Positions 9,546-38,925 of a DNA stretch of 57,488 bases are shown here, in pieces. A model generated the notes under the pieces. The model saw nothing but the letters and a program-made list of their open reading frames with translations. It searched no databases and was not told the origin of the DNA. The stretch is from Eubacteriales bacterium (GTDB taxonomy: Bacteria; Bacillota; Clostridia; Oscillospirales; CAG-272), in NCBI GenBank assembly GCA_045532975.1, contig JAZSGX010000005.1, forward strand, positions 1 to 57,488, given 5' to 3'. Position 1 is the stretch's first letter. Each line of letters opens with the position of its first letter. A program made the translations under genes and the position numbers.

Positions 9546-11636
9546 ATGAAAAAGCTTTCTTTATTATTTGTATTCGTTGTATTAGCAGTGGCAATTTTCG
9601 CAATTACCGCCTTTGCCGCTCAGTCTAATATAGCTAATCAAGCTGAGGTTTCAACAACAACCGGTTGTTGGGTATCCAAGAACTACATTTCCGCTTTAAT
9701 TGACGGCAACCGTGAAAAAGGCACCGCTTCTTCTTATAGCGATAAAGCCGTTAGCTACACTCTTACCTACAACCAAGACGTTTTTATTGAACAATTGGTT
9801 ATTGTTGTAAACGGAAAAGGAAGAACCTATGACGACGGAAAAGGCGGCGGTATTTTTGAAGAGGTTACAAATTACAATTTCCCGTTAACTATTAAACTGA
9901 CAAACTCTGCCGGCGATGTTGTTTATGAACAAGCTCACCAAACCGGGGACAAAACAGAAATAGCTATTACTCCAAATGCTAGCGTTTGCGAAATCACATT
10001 AACCATTACATGTAATTGGAATAGCAACTGCAACATTTGGGAGGTTGAGGCATTCGGTCACGTTTGTAGCTATACCGAGTTGGTTGAAGAAACTCCCGCT
10101 CCAACATGTATGGACACAGGATTGAAGATTTTGGGCTGCTCCGAATGTGACAGCACAAAGAAAGAAATCATTCCTGCAATTGGCTCACACACTTGGGACG
10201 AAGGCGTTATCACCACCGACCCAACTGAAGCCACCGAGGGTGTTAAGACCTATACCTGTACAGTTTGTAAGTCCACAAAAACTGAAAGAGTACAGCCAAT
10301 CGGACATAATTGGGACGAAGGTACTGTTGTTGCGCCAAGCTGTACAGAGGGCGGCTATACAATATACAAATGCACAGACGAGGGCTGTGATAAATCATAT
10401 ACAATTGCTCCAACCGATGCTTTAGGACACGATTACGAAAGTGTTATAACAGTTGCTCCTACTCTAACAAAAGAGGGAGAAAAGCTTTTGACCTGTAAGA
10501 GAGAAGGCTGCGGTCACTCTAAGACAGAGGTTGTGCCGGTAGCCACTATGTCTGACAGCTCATTCATTATAGGTCTTGATAACATAGTTTCATTTAAGGA
10601 AGTAATTGAGGGTCCTGCCCACGAAAACCGCAATTGGCAGCATCTTTTCGACGGAAACAACGCAAACACCTCAAGCTCACAAAGCAATCCTGCCGGATGG
10701 TTTGGAAAGCCGGGAAGCACTCTTTCCTTAGTTTTTGATGAAGAATATTATATTTTGAGCGCCACCTTCTACGCTTGGTCCAATTACGCTTCATTTACAA
10801 TAGATTTCATTGGTGCAGACGGCAGCACAGTCGCAACACACTCAGGTAGAGGATACCAAGACACTAATATTGCCCCACACGCAATAGACGTTTGCGTTGA
10901 CAAATACGTTAAATCAATTAAGATAACTATAAATGATGCAAAATACGACTACGGTAACGGTCTTGCCTTCCAAGAATTAATTTTCACAGCTCACAAGCAT
11001 TTGGCTGAGGGCGAAAACGCAAAATACGACGAGGTTGTCGGCTGCGTTGACAACGGTAGTTATAAAAAATTCTGCTACGTTTGTGAAAAGGAGGTTTTGG
11101 TTGAAACAAAGCCATCAGGCATCCACGACCTTTCAACAGATATCACCTTCCCTAAGGGATTTGATATGAACGGTAGTGTTAGCTCAACCTGCTCAAGATG
11201 TGATTACAGTGAAAAGCAACGTCTAAAGCCAATCTTCTACTCCTACGGTTACTCTGTAAGAGAAGACGGTGGCGCTATTACCCACAGAATTGAAATTGAC
11301 CTTGAGGCTTTGGCAGCTTACGAAAGCTATGCAAAAGCACCGCTTGTATTTGGTACAGTTGCAGCAGCAACTCCTAACTTTGAGGGTGCGCCTATCGAAG
11401 TTGTAGACGGTACAGTTGTTGGAACAAGCAGCCGCGTATCCGTTAAGACTTTAAGCGGATTAGGTTATGTTTCCATAGAGAACAGAATCGCTAACATACC
11501 TGAATTTGCATACGATACAGAGGTTGTGCTTTGCCCATTCATCTACGACGGAAAGAGCATTTCCTACATTAACGCAAACAAAGACTCCGGCGCAGAATTT
11601 GAAACAGTAACCTATAACAACCTTTTGCAGAATTAA
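9546..11636 (+). CDS. Secreted hypothetical protein: two discoidin-like domains, His/Cys 'PTC..G....C..C' repeats, conserved C-terminal domain
   Basis: Signal peptide ending AFA; LIDGN and LFDGN domains; four repeats such as HTWDEG...PT....GVKTYTCTVC; GYSVREDG and YDG..I.Y shared with 8018..9325. Confidence 0.82.
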   Translation: MKKLSLLFVFVVLAVAIFAITAFAAQSNIANQAEVSTTTGCWVSKNYISALIDGNREKGTASSYSDKAVSYTLTYNQDVFIEQLVIVVNGKGRTYDDGKGGGIFEEVTNYNFPLTIKLTNSAGDVVYEQAHQTGDKTEIAITPNASVCEITLTITCNWNSNCNIWEVEAFGHVCSYTELVEETPAPTCMDTGLKILGCSECDSTKKEIIPAIGSHTWDEGVITTDPTEATEGVKTYTCTVCKSTKTERVQPIGHNWDEGTVVAPSCTEGGYTIYKCTDEGCDKSYTIAPTDALGHDYESVITVAPTLTKEGEKLLTCKREGCGHSKTEVVPVATMSDSSFIIGLDNIVSFKEVIEGPAHENRNWQHLFDGNNANTSSSQSNPAGWFGKPGSTLSLVFDEEYYILSATFYAWSNYASFTIDFIGADGSTVATHSGRGYQDTNIAPHAIDVCVDKYVKSIKITINDAKYDYGNGLAFQELIFTAHKHLAEGENAKYDEVVGCVDNGSYKKFCYVCEKEVLVETKPSGIHDLSTDITFPKGFDMNGSVSSTCSRCDYSEKQRLKPIFYSYGYSVREDGGAITHRIEIDLEALAAYESYAKAPLVFGTVAAATPNFEGAPIEVVDGTVVGTSSRVSVKTLSGLGYVSIENRIANIPEFAYDTEVVLCPFIYDGKSISYINANKDSGAEFETVTYNNLLQN

Positions 11637-11646
11637 ATTCACATTA

Positions 11647-11676
11647 AAATGGCGGCTTCTTTCAGTCGCCATTTTC
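11647..11676 (+). terminator. Intrinsic terminator
   Basis: AAAATGGCGGCT...AGTCGCCATTTT. Confidence 0.65.
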
Positions 11677-11715
11677 CTTTTGAAAATAAAAATATAATTT
11701 TTTTCAAATTTGCTA

Positions 11716-11744
11716 TTGACAAACTAATCTTTATGTGTTAAAAT
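11716..11744 (+). promoter_or_regulatory. SigmaA promoter of the tRNA pair
   Basis: TTGACA (11716-21), 17 bp spacer, TG-N-TAAAAT (11739-44), about 20 nt before tRNA-Thr. Confidence 0.8.
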
Positions 11745-11765
11745 ATCACCGTTGCAAGATAATAT

Positions 11766-11840
11766 GCTGGCGTGGCTCAATGGCAGAGCAGCTGATTTGT
11801 AATCAGCAGGTTGATGGTTCGACTCCGTTCGCCAGCTCCA
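11766..11840 (+). tRNA. tRNA-Thr(TGT)
   Basis: Cloverleaf: acceptor GCTGGCG/CGCCAGC, anticodon arm GCTGA-TTTGTAA-TCAGC, GGTTCGACTCC, encoded CCA. Confidence 0.97.
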
Positions 11841-11854
11841 ATCTTGCAACATAT

Positions 11855-11939
11855 GGGGGATTTCCCGAGCGGCCAAAGGGGGCAGACTGTAAATCTGTTG
11901 TCACTGACTTCGGTGGTCCGAATCCACCATCCCCCACCA
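11855..11939 (+). tRNA. tRNA-Tyr(GTA)
   Basis: GGGGGAT/ATCCCCC acceptor, CAGA-CTGTAAA-TCTG anticodon arm, long variable arm, GGTCCGAATCC T arm, encoded CCA. Confidence 0.96.
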
Positions 11940-12537
11940 CGAAACAGGCATCCGTAAGGATGCCTTTTTTTGTTTCGTGGTGGGGGATGGTCTTCGGACC
12001 ATTTCCTTGCCCTTTCTGGGCAAGGATGTGGTTCGTTCTTTTTGCCTAAGCCGTTGTCAGCTCGCTAGCATAAGGCGTGGCAAAAAGTTCACGCAGTGAA
12101 AATCCACCCTCGATACTGTTCGCTCATAAGATTAAGGGAGAACTTTTGTTTGTTTCGAAACAGGCATCCGTAAGGATGCCTTTTTTGTTTCGTGGTGGGG
12201 GATGGTCTTTGGACTATTTCCTTGCCCTTTTGGGCAAGGATGTGGTTCGCTCTTTTGCTTTGCGCCCGAATCAGCTCGCTAGTGAAGGGTGGGAGCAAAT
12301 GCCTCGCAACGCGAGAATCCACCCTCGACACTGTTCGCACTTGCTTTCTTGGGAGACACCAATCGGATGCCTTTTTTGTTTCGTGGTGGGGGATGGTCTT
12401 TGGACCATTTCCTTGCCCTTTTGGGCAAGGATGTGGTTCGCTCTTTTGCTTTGCGCCCGAATCAGCTCGCTAGTGAAGGGCGGAAGCAAAAGCCTCGCAA
12501 CGCGAGAATCCACCCTTGACATTGTTCGCACTTGCTT
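11940..12537. repeat. Three tandem structured repeats (periods 216 and 191 bp), each with an inverted copy of the tRNA-Tyr 3' end
   Basis: GGATGCC-Tn-GTTTCGTGGTGGGGGATGGTC recurs at 11958, 12174 and 12365. Units share the TCCTTGCCC...GGGCAAGGA hairpin, TCAGCTCGCTAG and AATCCACCCT. Confidence 0.95.
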
Positions 12538-12553
12538 GTGGACACATTTTTCA

Positions 12554-12582
12554 GCGGGGCGTCGAGGACGTCGCCCCCTACA
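12554..12582 (-). repeat. REP-like palindrome (GTAG class)
   Basis: Minus strand TGTAGGGGGCGACGTCCTCGACGCCCCGC: GTAG tetranucleotide followed by a GC-rich imperfect hairpin. Confidence 0.75.
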
Positions 12583-12593
12583 AGATTTCTTGG

Positions 12594-12640
12594 ACTCCTT
12601 CCGTCACCCTACGGGTGCCACCTCCCTCGAGGATGGAGGC
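12594..12640. repeat. Dispersed double-hairpin repeat, copy 1
   Basis: ACTCCTTCCGTCACCCTACGGGTGCCACCTCCCTCGAGGATGGAGGC; near-identical copy at 45996-46043. Confidence 0.85.
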
Positions 12641-12674
12641 ATTTTGCGTTTTGCTCCGCCCATACATATTTTCG

Positions 12675-12707
12675 CAAAAAAGAGAGCGTGAAAACGCTCT
12701 CTTTTTT
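12675..12707. terminator. Bidirectional-type terminator downstream of the mntR-like gene
   Basis: AAAAAAGAGAGCGT-GAAA-ACGCTCTCTTTTTT. Confidence 0.8.
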
Positions 12708-12713
12708 CTCTTA

Positions 12714-13088
12714 TTATTTTTCTTCGCTACGCTTTAGATATTCCTTTAGCTTATCAAAGCTTTCGTGACTTATGCAATGCTCTATTTTGCAGCTATCCTC
12801 ATAAGCGGTTTCCTCACTAACTCCCAAGGACATAAGCACCTTAGCAATCACCAAGTGTCTTTCATAAACAGACTGTGCAATCTTTAAGCCCTTTTCCGTC
12901 AAATCAAGAAATCCGTTTTCGTCAACGGTGATATAGCCCTCCTCACGGAAGTTTTTCATAGCTACGCTAACGCTGGGCTTAGAAACGCCCAAATCGTTTG
13001 CCACGTCAATACTACGCACGTTGCCCTTTGATTTTTTCAATGACAATATAGCTTCAAGATAGTTTTCAGCAGACTCCTTGATAATCAT
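12714..13088 (-). CDS. mntR: DtxR/MntR-family metal-dependent repressor
   Basis: ESAENYLEAI, VRSIDVA..LGVSKPSVS HTH, YERH, DSCKIEH.IS. Confidence 0.88.
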   Translation of the reverse strand: MIIKESAENYLEAILSLKKSKGNVRSIDVANDLGVSKPSVSVAMKNFREEGYITVDENGFLDLTEKGLKIAQSVYERHLVIAKVLMSLGVSEETAYEDSCKIEHCISHESFDKLKEYLKRSEEK

Positions 13089-37790: not shown

Positions 37791-38141
37791 GAGGCATAAC
37801 CATAATCAAAAAATAGGTTAAATATAAAGGTTGTACTGACAACGGTTGGTACAACCTTTTATTTTTGTCTGCTACTCTTTTAAGGTCGAAAAGCTCTGCT
37901 TTTCCGCTTTTTATTTTAATTTTTTGATTACTACCCCTGTTTTTCGCCTCTCGACGTACGTTTGTACGCCTTTCGGGCGAAAGAACAGGGCTTTCTGCTC
38001 TCTGTATTAAGCCCTAGGGTTTGTTTGTGCGTGAGGCATAACCGAAACCAAAAATCGGATTATAAACAAAGGCTATACTGACAACGGTTAGTATAGCCTT
38101 TTCTTTTCATTTGCTACTTTTTTTAGGTCGAAAAGCTTTGC
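37791..38141 (+). repeat. Two diverged ~110-bp direct repeats (37791-37899, 38033-38141), each with a terminator hairpin; copy 1 lies inside a fold-back
   Basis: GAGGCATAACC...AAAGG(TTG/CTA)TACTGACAACGGTT(G/A)GTA(CAA/TAG)CCTTTT...GGTCGAAAAGCT in both copies. Confidence 0.88.
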
Positions 38142-38149
38142 CCACGCAT

Positions 38150-38925
38150 AATCATAACCACCAGTGCAACTGGTGGTATGCACACCCCTAGAAGGGGATA
38201 ATACAGGCTTAACCTCTCAAGAGGCACTGAAGATCTGGCACCACATTACAATCACTGGCAACCGCTCACGAGCGGTTGTCTTTTTTATGCCTTACTTTCC
38301 TTGCTACCTGTGAACGGGTCTATGTACTCTTTGAGTGTTATTTGATCCAACATACAATCTTCTTGCAACTGATTTCTTATGTATTCCGCTATTACTTTTT
38401 TGTTGCGTCCAACCGTATCAACATAGTATCCTCTGCACCAAAAATGTCTTGAGCCATACTTGTATTTTAGATTCGAATGTCTGTCAAATATCATCAATGT
38501 ACTTTTTCCCTTGAGATATCCCATAAATTGTGCTATACTTATGTGGGGTGGGATACTCACCAGCATGTGTATGTGGTCTGAACACGCTTCTGCTTCGATT
38601 ATTTCCACCTCTTTTTGCTCGCACAATTTTCTTAGTATTTCTCCGATATCTTTCTTTATCTGCCCATATATCTCTTTTCTTCTAAATTTCGGTGCAAATA
38701 CTATATGATATTGACACCTGTATTTTGAATGTGCGTTGCTTCTTATTTCATTCTTTTCCATAAAAATTAATCCTCCTGTATTTTAGTAATGCGGTCGCCA
38801 AACCACTACTAGTATATAGGAGGCTTAATTTTTGTAACCTTCTCTTGGGCTTGCGTAAAGCTCGCCCGAATTTATTGCTGTTCCACGCGTCTTTTTCCCC
38901 TAGTAGAACTAGGGGTTTATTTCCA
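38150..38925 (-). mobile_element. IS200/IS605-family element carrying tnpA only; ends approximate
   Basis: Subterminal hairpins ACCACCAG-TGCAA-CTGGTGGT (~38157-38178) and CCCCTAG-TAGAA-CTAGGGG (~38897-38915) flank a Y1 transposase; no tnpB or TIRs; inserted between two terminators. Confidence 0.85.
38285..38761 (-). CDS. tnpA: IS200/IS605 Y1 HUH transposase
   Basis: YHIVFAPKFRR, DHIHML (HUH), YLKGKS, FWCRGYYV.TVG, catalytic EYIRNQ. Confidence 0.96.
   Translation of the reverse strand: MEKNEIRSNAHSKYRCQYHIVFAPKFRRKEIYGQIKKDIGEILRKLCEQKEVEIIEAEACSDHIHMLVSIPPHISIAQFMGYLKGKSTLMIFDRHSNLKYKYGSRHFWCRGYYVDTVGRNKKVIAEYIRNQLQEDCMLDQITLKEYIDPFTGSKESKA

Follow-up and report, generated by a model that had tools for sequence, protein, structure and literature searches.

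What is the array of structured repeats that lies directly behind a tRNA-Tyr gene in the genome of an Eubacteriales bacterium, and why does each repeat carry an inverted copy of that tRNA's own 3' end? In the window, as we call the whole stretch of 57,488 nucleotides from contig JAZSGX010000005.1 (assembly GCA_045532975.1) that was analysed, the initial annotation had described tRNA-Tyr followed by structured repeats bearing antisense tRNA ends, and each of its statements about the sequence holds at its position. The features, in window coordinates, are these:

11716..11744, plus strand: promoter-like site of the tRNA-Thr/tRNA-Tyr operon (TTGACA-17-TAAAAT)
11766..11840, plus strand: tRNA-Thr(tgt) (ARAGORN, Rfam)
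11855..11939, plus strand: tRNA-Tyr(gta), the host tRNA (ARAGORN, Rfam); its final 14 nt serve as the sense arm of palindrome P1
11926..11991, plus strand: palindrome P1, made of the tRNA 3' end and trailer (11926-11946), the terminator (11946-11965), a T-run and an antisense copy of the tRNA 3' end (11971-11991)
11940..12155, plus strand: unit 1, the most canonical copy; match to covariance model R1 at 11976-12118 (135.9 bits)
11995..12035, plus strand: long hairpin H2 of unit 1, 17 pairs, 11995-12012 with 12018-12035
12038..12100, plus strand: conserved core of unit 1; outer stem 12038-12046/12079-12087
12050-12052/12074-12076, plus strand: 3-bp stem of the unit 1 core
12055-12060/12065-12070, plus strand: inner hairpin of the unit 1 core
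12088-12092/12096-12100, plus strand: small hairpin H4 of the unit 1 core
12100..12116, plus strand: sense copy in unit 1 of the 3' part of the host T-loop and the 3' strand of the T-stem (AAATCCACC)
12156..12364, plus strand: unit 2; trailer/terminator copy 12162-12181, antisense copy 12186-12206, R1 match 12191-12333 (99.8 bits)
12365..12537, plus strand: unit 3; antisense copy 12377-12397, R1 match 12382-12524 (111.2 bits)

The promoter-like site is the only one on the plus strand upstream of the array, and tRNA-Tyr is followed by a terminator (GGCATCC-GTAA-GGATGCC with a T-run) of which unit 2 holds a second copy and unit 3 the 3' half alone (12364-12379), with a GACACC-type stretch on its 5' side; the three GGATGCC motifs noticed behind the tRNA do start at 11958, 12174 and 12365. 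The segment at 11926-11946, which joins the last 14 nt of tRNA-Tyr to 7 nt of trailer, meets a 21-nt, 100% complement in each unit. These antisense segments had been read as the reverse complement of the acceptor/T-arm end of the tRNA; the complementarity is as described, but it extends past the CCA into the trailer and therefore matches the gene or its primary transcript, not the mature tRNA end alone. Of the genome's 36 tRNA genes, tRNA-Tyr and tRNA-Ser(gct) alone are followed by an inverted match of 21 nt; for the rest such matches reach at most 11 nt, which puts the observation beyond chance. Tandem Repeats Finder reports periods of 215 (11940-12338) and 191 (12174-12537), and units 2 and 3 are 97% identical to one another while unit 1 is about 75-80% identical to both. 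In units 2 and 3 letters of the inner loop that are otherwise conserved have mutated, which marks them as decayed copies.

Unit 1 shows most clearly how the tRNA-derived segments and the hairpins fit together. The pairing of its long hairpin is confirmed, and the base of that hairpin is itself tRNA-like, with antisense T-loop/T-stem (CGGACC) on the 5' side and GTGGTTCG, the sense T-stem 5' strand plus TTCG, on the 3' side. The small hairpin reads TTCAC/GTGAA here and CTCGC/GCGAG in units 2 and 3, exactly as first seen. The sense copy is followed by a degenerate acceptor and pairs with 11977-11990, closing a four-way junction; the sense T-arm copy reported for each unit, AATCCACC, is present in all three, with 9-12 nt of sense tRNA copy per unit. 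Folded together, tRNA-Tyr and unit 1 reach -143.4 kcal/mol (z = -9.4 against shuffles).

The same plan runs through the family, whose units measure only about 145-215 bp and consist of four parts: an inverted copy of the T-arm and acceptor end of the host tRNA; a long, variable hairpin with GGTTCG at its end; a conserved core of about 65 nt with two hairpins, occupying the position of the T-loop; and, in direct orientation, the T-loop, T-stem and acceptor of the host once more. Together, tRNA and unit form a miniature forward-inverted-forward triplication of the segment from T-arm to 3' end, in which the tRNA runs forward, the terminator hairpin makes the first turn, the antisense copy is inverted, the long hairpin makes the second turn, and the final T-arm/acceptor copy runs forward again. 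The core is lodged in the T-loop of that last forward copy, immediately 3' of TTCG. Its left flank reads TTCG or TGCG, the G, T, C and G being invariant in 36 of 36 aligned units, and both hairpins are present.

With a covariance model of the unit (R1), 406 copies were detected; they are spread over 48 of 50 genus genomes at 1-18 per genome, all 23 high-quality ones included, and 13 lie in the window genome, several at contig ends. Weaker relatives of the unit are found in 8 further genera, and the core in 10 of 147 sampled genomes outside the genus. The carriers belong to one uncultured lineage, labelled Oscillospiraceae, of bacteria that inhabit the guts of ruminants and other animals. The initial annotation had allowed that the core might occur only here and lack covariation, which these copies and their strongly covarying stems contradict. 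The impression that the array occurred "only here", or had only 2 relatives, arose because the decayed unit 2 served as the BLAST query and returned, elsewhere in the genome, only matches of 14-37 bases at E >= 0.3; the true range came from searches with unit 1, profiles and the covariance model. A scan for the loop pattern across 401 genomes of the order, with genus members left out, returned the window's own genome only, and a phage collection held no match to the unit. Carriage by phage was considered and set aside, the single match on a viral contig being host flank beyond a prophage tRNA-fragment repeat. We found no description of such elements in the full-text literature, which covers journals other than those behind subscription, and the family thus appears to be undescribed, though a search of that scope falls short of proof.

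Position is as regular as anatomy. In the species-genome collection a tRNA on the same strand lies 78-293 nt upstream at 45 of 76 confirmed loci, and units always take the strand of the tRNA, closely 3' of its terminator, behind at least 12 isoacceptors. It had been proposed to see whether the non-tRNA core follows other tRNAs, and it does (Tyr, Gln twice, Ser three times, Arg twice, Glu twice, Leu, Met). Which of three sub-families of the unit follows tRNA-Gln(ctg) differs between species, and at least five other core families with the same architecture stand behind tRNA-Leu, Met, Cys, Asn and Ser in the window genome.

The arms of these units belong to their hosts. Identity between cores that follow different tRNAs reaches 0.90-0.94, whereas the flanks of each core resemble the neighbouring tRNA alone; in pairwise alignments identity runs from the GTTCG/GTGCG motif to the small hairpin, and the flanks are unrelated. 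The expectation that antisense and sense segments would match each host was borne out among 48 unique tRNA-adjacent units, where the sense segment exceeds the 95th percentile of non-host pairings in 37 and the antisense segment in 24, the antisense copy being degenerate in the other half (24/48). All four tRNA-like segments track the T-stem variant of tRNA-Tyr (CCACC vs CCAGC) across species, and the antisense copy follows the genomic trailer, lacking the CCA where the gene encodes none (loci L022 and L163). Perfect copies of 15-19 nt of tRNA end with CCA occur at L034, L035 and on contigs C111 and C86, and at L034, L035 and C111 such a distal sense copy is a tRNA 3' end with CCA and its own terminator. 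Derivation from the target is not universal outside the core, since in one sub-family the long hairpin is common to different hosts.

Several observations have the look of movement. Elements of another family are nested inside the GGGTTCG of a unit (L055, L127), decayed and truncated copies occur, and array length varies among related metagenome contigs; neither a filled and an empty site within one species nor an excised form was found. With its core behind many tRNAs, host-matched arms and no recombinase alongside, the family is fairly described, as was suggested at first sight, as a tRNA-anchored, non-autonomous repeat family.

We put at about one in two the probability that these units are a non-autonomous insertion element homing to T-arm copies of tRNAs, with arms derived from the target, and give an equal chance to the corresponding view of the tRNA-Tyr array as a small, non-coding insertion element rich in structure, present as a primary copy followed by two tandem duplicates. 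DNA mobility, a copying mechanism and a trans-acting enzyme are what we infer beyond the observations. The mobile part would be the core with part of the long hairpin; it would home to T-arm-like hairpins, and the insertions that survive would be those into spare copies of tRNA 3' ends. The tRNA-matched arms would be copied from the local target, not carried as guides, by fold-back or template-switch synthesis at the terminator hairpin, by gene conversion with the neighbouring tRNA, or by both. In yeast, template switching at short inverted repeats has been described as a source of forward-inverted-forward copies (PMC11790251). Arrays would then grow by tandem duplication, and their copies would decay, as units 2 and 3 have done.

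An insertion element of this kind would depend on an enzyme encoded elsewhere. The earlier remark that the copies lack an integrase proved correct: the 91 ORFs that flank units at 30 loci include no integrase, reverse transcriptase or transposase. No enzyme tracks the family among reverse transcriptases, Y1 transposases, IS110, TnpB, and serine and tyrosine recombinases. Two suggestions made from the sequence fare poorly on this evidence: membership of a REPIN-like system is at odds with a Y1 transposase (Y1_Tnp) in only 23 of 50 genus genomes against 48 of 50 for the element, and SINE-like retrotransposition is unlikely with reverse transcriptase in 9 of 50 genus genomes and no RVT_1 match in the window genome. 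IS110 gave no PF01548 match over the cut-off in the genome and no such ORF beside units; TnpB is missing from the window genome. That genome has two tyrosine (PF00589) and three serine recombinase genes, neither PF00589 gene being on the window contig, and the IS200 copy in the window has end hairpins unrelated to the units. The window genome also carries a separate GC-rich, REP-like family together with RAYT-like genes, whose hairpins are likewise unrelated.

The alternative that survives best, which we hold only as a tentative possibility, is that the unit is a functional structured RNA, read through from the strong tRNA promoter, whose four-way junction would mimic the acceptor/T-stem minihelix of the host; RNase P, RNase Z and the CCA-adding enzyme could free and stabilise the core, and a partner would recognise it by sequence. 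The structural evidence speaks for such an RNA. Across 122 distinct units, 71.0% of cells are paired, compared with 55.4% after shuffling and 44-47% when partners are slid; double-sided changes number 1079 vs 451, and compensation is seen in 47 of 48 pairs. The inner hairpin and the 3-bp stem are 95-99% paired and include whole swaps, for example GCC/GGC to GGC/GCC, and the core sequence, its unpaired letters included, is conserved across about 50 species and in other genera, as is a near-invariant U.G pair (109/122 distinct units). The alignment behind these counts was itself fitted to the model, and the signal would be equal for a DNA palindrome; RNAalifold on a plain MAFFT alignment recovers the inner hairpin only, the full result resting on a structure given by hand and a model-based alignment. 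Pairing in the closing helix, moreover, reaches only 60%, and half of the units have a degenerate antisense arm.

Every unit lies on the tRNA strand, the plus strand folds better than the minus in 32 of 43 units, and G.U outnumbers A.C by 579 vs 394, an excess that becomes modest without the single invariant pair (470 vs 394); the fold bias and the G.U excess slightly favour an RNA, or one functional strand. The reverse reading, in which the minus strand would encode a tRNA-like gene with the tRNA-like 3' end and the terminator at its end, was also considered and rejected, as ARAGORN finds no tRNA there, the minus-strand fold is worse, and the array has no promoter-like site on that strand. 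A sequence scan found no promoter inside the array, and two canonical terminators precede units 1 and 2, an arrangement that counts against an RNA gene. The sequencing runs screened contained at most 0.24 of the sampled words each; contigs of the one RNA run cover the tRNAs and a downstream repeat at 12584-12651 and not the units, a result uninformative on unit expression either way. Rfam 15 (including rtT, T-box, tmRNA, Y RNA-like models and ribozymes), searched over the array region at E up to 10, passes only the two tRNAs, the best other scores belonging to microRNA models, through the long palindrome, and to LOOT, whose 20.1 bits fall short of its threshold of 46.4. Scans of 20 further loci (8 + 6 + 6) at permissive E gave only tRNAs, 5S rRNA and chance microRNA-like matches to palindromes.

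The conservation of the core, and the occurrence of the element in all 23 high-quality genomes, agree with a selected function no less well than with a transposase-less parasite, and the search for a mobilising enzyme that found none also favours an RNA. Against this stand the decay within arrays, where units 2 and 3 lost inner-loop letters, and the nested insertions, truncated copies and several unrelated core families with one architecture, all of which resemble mobile DNA. We also consider, as a rather doubtful variant, a self-tailoring element, in which some ubiquitous enzyme of the host might move the two-hairpin core by acting on a single strand folded to mimic the T-arm/acceptor region, with the inverted and direct arms built from the target, or, equivalently, a set of minihelix mimics for a dozen tRNAs.

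We regard it as improbable that the units are scars or cis-mobilisable mini-derivatives of islands that integrate by a tyrosine integrase in the T-loop/3' end of tRNA genes, so that a unit would be fused island arms, the sense copy the displaced tRNA fragment, and an array the product of tandem accretion. The genome does hold a classical island of this type, 3.3 kb with a 347-aa integrase ORF, at tRNA-Ser(gga) on contig C26, where a 20-nt direct repeat of the tRNA end begins in the T-loop. Mini-elements lie just outside island-type tRNA repeats (L172 among them), and in some units the far end is a perfect tRNA 3' end that has a terminator of its own. Islands are reported to restore the tRNA gene and leave a displaced fragment behind (PMC4383910), and altering an attP core is reported to redirect it to the T-loops of other tRNAs (PMC1762012). 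The ends of the C26 island, however, are direct arm-type repeats with no antisense tRNA copy, long hairpin or core; none of 30 loci has an adjacent integrase, and two integrase-family genes face 13 units in the genome. In the units the T-stem 5' strand and TTCG precede the core instead of lying beside the displaced fragment, which is unlike an attR layout and means that the core splits a T-arm copy. Island scars would, in addition, require identical deletion end-points at hundreds of loci and leave unexplained how one core gains four tRNA-matched segments with each new host.

Less probable still is that the units act in trans as antisense to mature tRNA-Tyr, in the manner of a retroviral primer-binding site, a tRNA sponge or a T-box-like sensor. 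The initial annotation had suggested an RNA array of this kind, and the perfect 14-nt match to the tRNA 3' end including CCA, with a TGG start in all three units, speaks for it. Yet the match extends into the trailer, which is absent from the mature tRNA, lacks the CCA like the gene at L022 and L163, and has degenerated in 24 of 48 units; neither the window genome nor 41 of the 50 genus genomes has a reverse transcriptase, Rfam yields neither a T-box nor another match, and terminators, with no promoter, stand before the units. A neutral duplication peculiar to the tRNA-Tyr locus, which the 97% identity of units 2 and 3 as recent tandem duplicates and the short BLAST matches of unit 2 had seemed to favour, is refuted as a full explanation by the 13 copies in the genome, 406 in the genus, at least 12 tRNA types and covariation, and holds for the step from unit 2 to unit 3 alone.

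Transfer RNA genes are the classic landing sites of large islands, and here they are accompanied by hundreds of tiny, integrase-less, structured elements. If these are mobile, their targeting and copying would be independent of an element-encoded guide or recombinase, and they would account for assembly breaks and for variation in tRNA flanks among gut Clostridia genomes; if they are RNAs, they would be a family of tRNA-end mimics with a conserved core absent from Rfam. The self-tailoring or minihelix reading, if true, would mean a new coupling of a mobile or regulatory module to tRNA genes. About 400 natural variants behind at least 12 tRNA hosts offer a system for studying duplication, inversion and tRNA-matching of tRNA-adjacent sequence.

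Comparison with known systems places the units near several of them. CIMEs are integrase-less, cis-mobilisable derivatives of tRNA-integrated genomic islands. Like such islands and CIMEs, the units lie at a tRNA 3' end, leave the tRNA intact, carry a direct copy from T-loop to 3' end at the far side, and form tandem arrays. The displaced 3' fragment as a direct repeat is thus present, whereas an own or cognate integrase with the same ends is not: no integrase lies within or near the units, and the ends of the examined island differ. Unlike islands and CIMEs, the units add an inverted tRNA-end copy and a long hairpin, their core splits the T-arm copy, and one core stands behind at least 12 tRNAs with arms matched to each. 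The tyrT 178-bp repeats of E. coli, source of rtT RNA, also lie in tandem behind tRNA-Tyr, each with a direct copy of the tRNA 3' end. The units share the tandem position directly behind tRNA-Tyr with them, but add the inverted copy, are dispersed over many tRNAs and belong to a distant phylum; rtT is not among the Rfam hits.

MITEs have fixed terminal inverted repeats in common with an autonomous transposon, plus a target-site duplication. In the units the outer arms vary by host tRNA, the 91 flanking ORFs contain no autonomous partner, and no short target-site duplication was seen at the units. MITEs, REPINs and IS200/IS605-derived palindromes are often intergenic and mobilised in trans; the REPIN/RAYT system pairs inverted REP doublets with a RAYT (Y1) gene in the same genome, and IS200/IS605-type elements, which have sub-terminal hairpins and a cognate TnpA, enter the DNA 3' of a fixed tetra- or pentanucleotide and duplicate no target sequence. 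The units resemble all of these in being small, non-coding, multi-copy and hairpin-rich, and the IS200/IS605-type insertion motif recalls the invariant TTCG left of the core, although the ends of the window IS200 are unrelated. They differ from MITEs and REPINs (PMC3116915) in that unit ends are specific to the host tRNA and the Y1 transposase is missing from 27 of 50 genomes, most of which have the element.

The tRNA primer-binding site of a retroelement or SINE combines complementarity to the mature tRNA 3' end with a reverse transcriptase; the units have trailer-spanning and CCA-less matches, and RVT_1 is absent from the window genome. IS110 with its bridge RNA sets a DEDD recombinase beside a structured RNA whose loops match target and donor; the units have no PF01548 and no adjoining recombinase ORF. 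Integron attC and CTX phage attP are folded single-strand sites of variable sequence and conserved structure used by tyrosine recombinases of the host or acting in trans. By analogy the units may be compared with them as imperfect palindromes with conserved non-canonical positions and the capacity for arrays; they differ in that neither an integron integrase nor a phage context was found at the units, and in arms that mimic a segment of a tRNA gene. In layout the units come close to ODIRA of yeast (PMC11790251), which has the same forward-inverted-forward order and places both junctions at inverted repeats able to form hairpins, a role that falls in the units to the terminator and the long hairpin. 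By the same analogy the units would be a version of tens of bases instead of kilobases, in a bacterium, recurring at hundreds of tRNA loci with a conserved core.

Downstream of tRNA-Tyr(gta), the window carries a tandem array in which the 3' end of the tRNA recurs in inverted orientation, and its features are the following:

11716-11744: promoter-like site, 5' of tRNA-Thr and tRNA-Tyr
11766-11840, + strand: tRNA-Thr(tgt), tRNA gene call
11855-11939, + strand: tRNA-Tyr(gta), the host tRNA, tRNA gene call
11946-11965: canonical terminator hairpin followed by a T-run, separated from the tRNA-Tyr CCA by a 7-nt trailer

The antisense copy at 11971-11991 (21 nt) is 100% complementary to 11926-11946, the last 14 nt of tRNA-Tyr plus the trailer, and the same 21-mer returns at 12186 and at 12377. 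The antisense repeats that the initial annotation described after tRNA-Tyr are thus real, with perfect complementarity over 21 nt in three places; all of its hairpins were also found, including the compensatory stem TTCAC/GTGAA versus CTCGC/GCGAG, as was the sense T-arm copy AATCCACC within the units. By Tandem Repeats Finder the array (11940-12537) has one period of 215 and one of 191; identity is 97% between units 2 and 3 and ~75-80% between unit 1 and these two. Two canonical terminators stand 5' of units 1 and 2, and no promoter-like site was found within the array. Across the genome's 36 tRNA genes, a 21-nt downstream inverted match occurs only at tRNA-Tyr and tRNA-Ser(gct), the others reaching at most 11 nt. 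Directly 3' of the array (12545-12650), a GC-rich REP-like palindrome (12556-12577) is followed by '...CCCCTACAAG'; contig depth in the DNA runs peaks in this region, look-alikes lie 3' of units or tRNA flanks at two inspected loci (L041, L111) and on contig C86, and a RAYT-like Y1 gene on contig C74 holds repeats like the palindrome. Compared with window 9546-13088, the tRNA-Thr/tRNA-Tyr/units block of another species (locus L015, genome G186) is, by eye, flipped between its neighbours, which are a large ORF resembling a surface protein and a gene of the iron-dependent-repressor family.

The tRNA-Tyr repeats belong to a family that extends beyond this locus. Unit 2, which is decayed, returned almost no matches elsewhere by BLAST; unit 1 as query matched 42 of 50 same-genus genomes at several places per genome. 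In the window's own genome a profile of the core, the conserved ~65-nt two-hairpin part, found 12 copies, many of which lie at the ends of contigs. A covariance model (143 positions, 48 pairs) made from 36 units, with the unit 1 fold as its structure, yielded 406 matches in 48 of 50 genus genomes (1-18 per genome, 13 in the window's own), including all 23 high-quality genomes. Outside the genus, weaker matches (at most 51 bits) occur in 10 of 147 sampled genomes of the bacterial family, in 8 other genera; a tRNA is called directly upstream at four of the nine loci inspected there, and a tRNA 3' part is visible at two more. When 185,579 species, each represented by a single genome, were scanned with a pattern, 104 stretches emerged, almost all of them in MAGs labelled Clostridia, Eubacteriales or Oscillospiraceae bacterium and drawn from gut samples of deer, goat, sheep and other animals; four of the 80 stretches fetched lack a profile match, and the three of these in other phyla probably arose by chance. 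The element had no match in the phage collection, and phage carriage via a single viral-contig match was rejected, the matching stretch being host flank.

At the 30 genus loci examined first, a tRNA stands on the same strand ~110-130 nt 5' of the core (Tyr, Gln(ctg), Gln(ttg), Ser(gct), Ser(tga), Arg(cct) or Glu(ctc)), frequently in tandem with two to three units per locus. A same-strand tRNA stands 78-293 nt upstream at 45 of 76 confirmed loci of the species collection (12 isoacceptors), and 31 have no tRNA inside the 400-nt flank; several of 14 tRNA-less loci inspected by eye follow a bare tRNA 3' fragment, sit in arrays or lie at contig ends. Each complete unit reads, 5' to 3':

Part 1: terminator hairpin
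Part 2: antisense copy of host trailer, acceptor 3' strand, T-stem and T-loop
Part 3: long hairpin of variable sequence, its 3' strand ending with the host T-stem 5' strand plus TTCG
Part 4: core of ~65 nt, with outer stem, 3-bp stem, CUYG-capped inner hairpin and small hairpin
Part 5: sense copy of the host T-loop 3' part, T-stem 3' strand and, partly or wholly, the acceptor

Taken with the upstream tRNA, this order makes the locus a forward-inverted-forward triplication of the tRNA from T-arm to 3' end, in which each turn coincides with a hairpin and the third copy holds the core precisely within its T-loop. At three loci (L025:1690-1876, L058:484-655, L022:2-158) the inner-hairpin tip of the core carries a ~20-45-nt extra insertion that itself bears a GGGGTTC motif. 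At two others (L027:526-870, L019:1733-2188) about 0.9-1.3 kb of other DNA, including in L027 a gene for a 23S-rRNA-intervening-sequence-type four-helix-bundle protein, separates tRNA-Tyr from the unit, and these inserts show further insertion rounds at the same tRNA end.

The arms match their hosts. Compared with non-host pairings in 48 unique tRNA-adjacent units, the sense segment scores above the 95th percentile in 37 and the antisense segment in 24. All four tRNA-like segments track the local one of two tRNA-Tyr T-stem variants across species, and the trailer and its complement vary in concert. Where the tRNA gene is CCA-less (L022, L163), the antisense copy tracks the genomic sequence, and the match is therefore to DNA or primary transcript and not to mature tRNA.

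Comparative alignment indicates that the modelled fold of the unit is conserved. The hand-given structure on a plain MAFFT alignment is 68.6% paired, against 59.4% in shuffles and at most 48% with slid partners; with 122 distinct units aligned by the model, pairing holds in 71.0% of cells (shuffles 55.4%, slid partners 32-47%), double-sided changes number 1079 cells versus 451 +/- 17, 47 of 48 pairs show compensation, and pairing reaches 95-99% in the 3-bp stem and the inner hairpin. The second alignment was made to fit the model and its sequences are related; the figures indicate a conserved fold and not a probability. The data discriminate only weakly between the strands: in 32 of 43 units the + strand folds more stably (mean difference 3.9 kcal/mol) and G.U pairs outnumber A.C pairs (579 versus 394), 109 of the G.U pairs coming from a single almost invariant pair, and a DNA palindrome working in single-stranded form would give the same result. 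The main rival explanation, which we consider possible with perhaps a one-in-four chance's worth of conviction, is a structured RNA made by read-through, its closing helix mimicking the acceptor/T minihelix of the host tRNA; the conserved core sequence and the universality of the element in the genus speak for it, whereas the terminators speak against it, as do decaying copies and nested insertions.

Several observations are signs of possible mobility. Identity between cores that follow different tRNAs reaches 0.94 (Glu-ctc/Glu-ttc), with 0.91 for Ser-gct/Arg-acg and 0.90 for both Glu-ctc/Arg-cct and Ser-gct/Gln-ttg, and pairwise alignments confine the identity to the interval between GTTCG/GTGCG and the small hairpin. 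Three different sub-families stand behind tRNA-Gln(ctg) in different species, some last units finish in a perfect copy of the tRNA 3' end, CCA included, plus a terminator of its own, and related metagenome contigs hold a shorter array; the small insertions at the inner-hairpin tip belong with these signs. The window's own genome has at least five other core families that repeat this layout, from a terminator through an antisense T-arm and a structured core to a sense 3' end of the tRNA, and none has an Rfam match:

C86:23640-24160: family behind tRNA-Leu(gag)
C111:5759-6130: family behind tRNA-Met
C13:1756-2050: family behind tRNA-Cys
C37:808-1290: family behind tRNA-Asn
C26:22811-23060: family behind tRNA-Ser(gga)

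The tRNA-Asn element retains a pseudo-tRNA from the anticodon loop on, with its T-loop interrupted, and an element of one of these families sits inserted within the GGGTTCG of a unit. The five loci were inspected as L048-L051 and L159.

The best-supported reading, to which we give a probability of about 0.5, is that the units are a non-autonomous insertion element homing to T-arm-like hairpins; the element is observed nowhere but in spare copies of a tRNA 3' end. Its tRNA-matched arms would derive from the target, and the inverted middle copy would most simply come from a fold-back or a template switch at the hairpin of the terminator, a layout described for ODIRA in yeast (PMC11790251). Gene conversion may hold the arms in step with the tRNA, and tandem duplication would produce arrays whose copies later decay.

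No integrase, transposase or reverse transcriptase was found among 91 flanking ORFs at 30 loci. The window's own genome has two tyrosine-recombinase genes, five Y1 transposase hits and three serine recombinases, with no reverse transcriptase, no IS110 over the cut-off and no TnpB; across the genus, reverse transcriptase occurs in 9 and Y1 transposase in 23 of 50 genomes, versus 48 for the element. An IS200-like Y1 transposase gene in the window (38369-38725, - strand) adjoins two ~240-nt repeats (about 37800-38100), each with a hairpin that resembles a terminator; the decamer in its loop, CCGTTGTCAG (in reverse complement at 37836 and 38078), is also conserved in the core of the tRNA-flank units. 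A RAYT-like Y1 gene (C52:17083-17801, L052) lies divergently beside a tRNA-Arg(acg) with a weak unit, and the same GC-rich hairpin flanks that tRNA on both sides.

That the units are scars of integrative islands fits worse and seems unlikely. In the window's own genome, tRNA-Ser(gga) is the site of a classical 3.3-kb island (C26:19386-22810) that contains an integrase ORF of 347 aa, repeats 20 nt of the tRNA end in direct orientation, beginning in the T-loop, and bears direct arm-type repeats at both ends; its ends carry no antisense copy, long hairpin or core, and a mini-element of another family stands directly beyond its direct repeat. Mini-elements and classical islands have a landing zone in common but differ in make-up. 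An antisense device pairing with the tRNA is a worse fit again and quite improbable, and a purely local duplication scarcely merits consideration.

The unit has no Rfam family match, and we found no description of such elements in the full-text literature open without subscription. It is doubtful that the family is something categorically new. The closest known kinds are tRNA-integrating islands with their integrase-less derivatives, the E. coli tyrT repeats and bacterial MITE/REPIN-type elements; in contrast to all of these, the family combines inverted and direct host-matched arms, a core that splits the T-arm copy, and a dozen tRNA hosts without a cognate enzyme.
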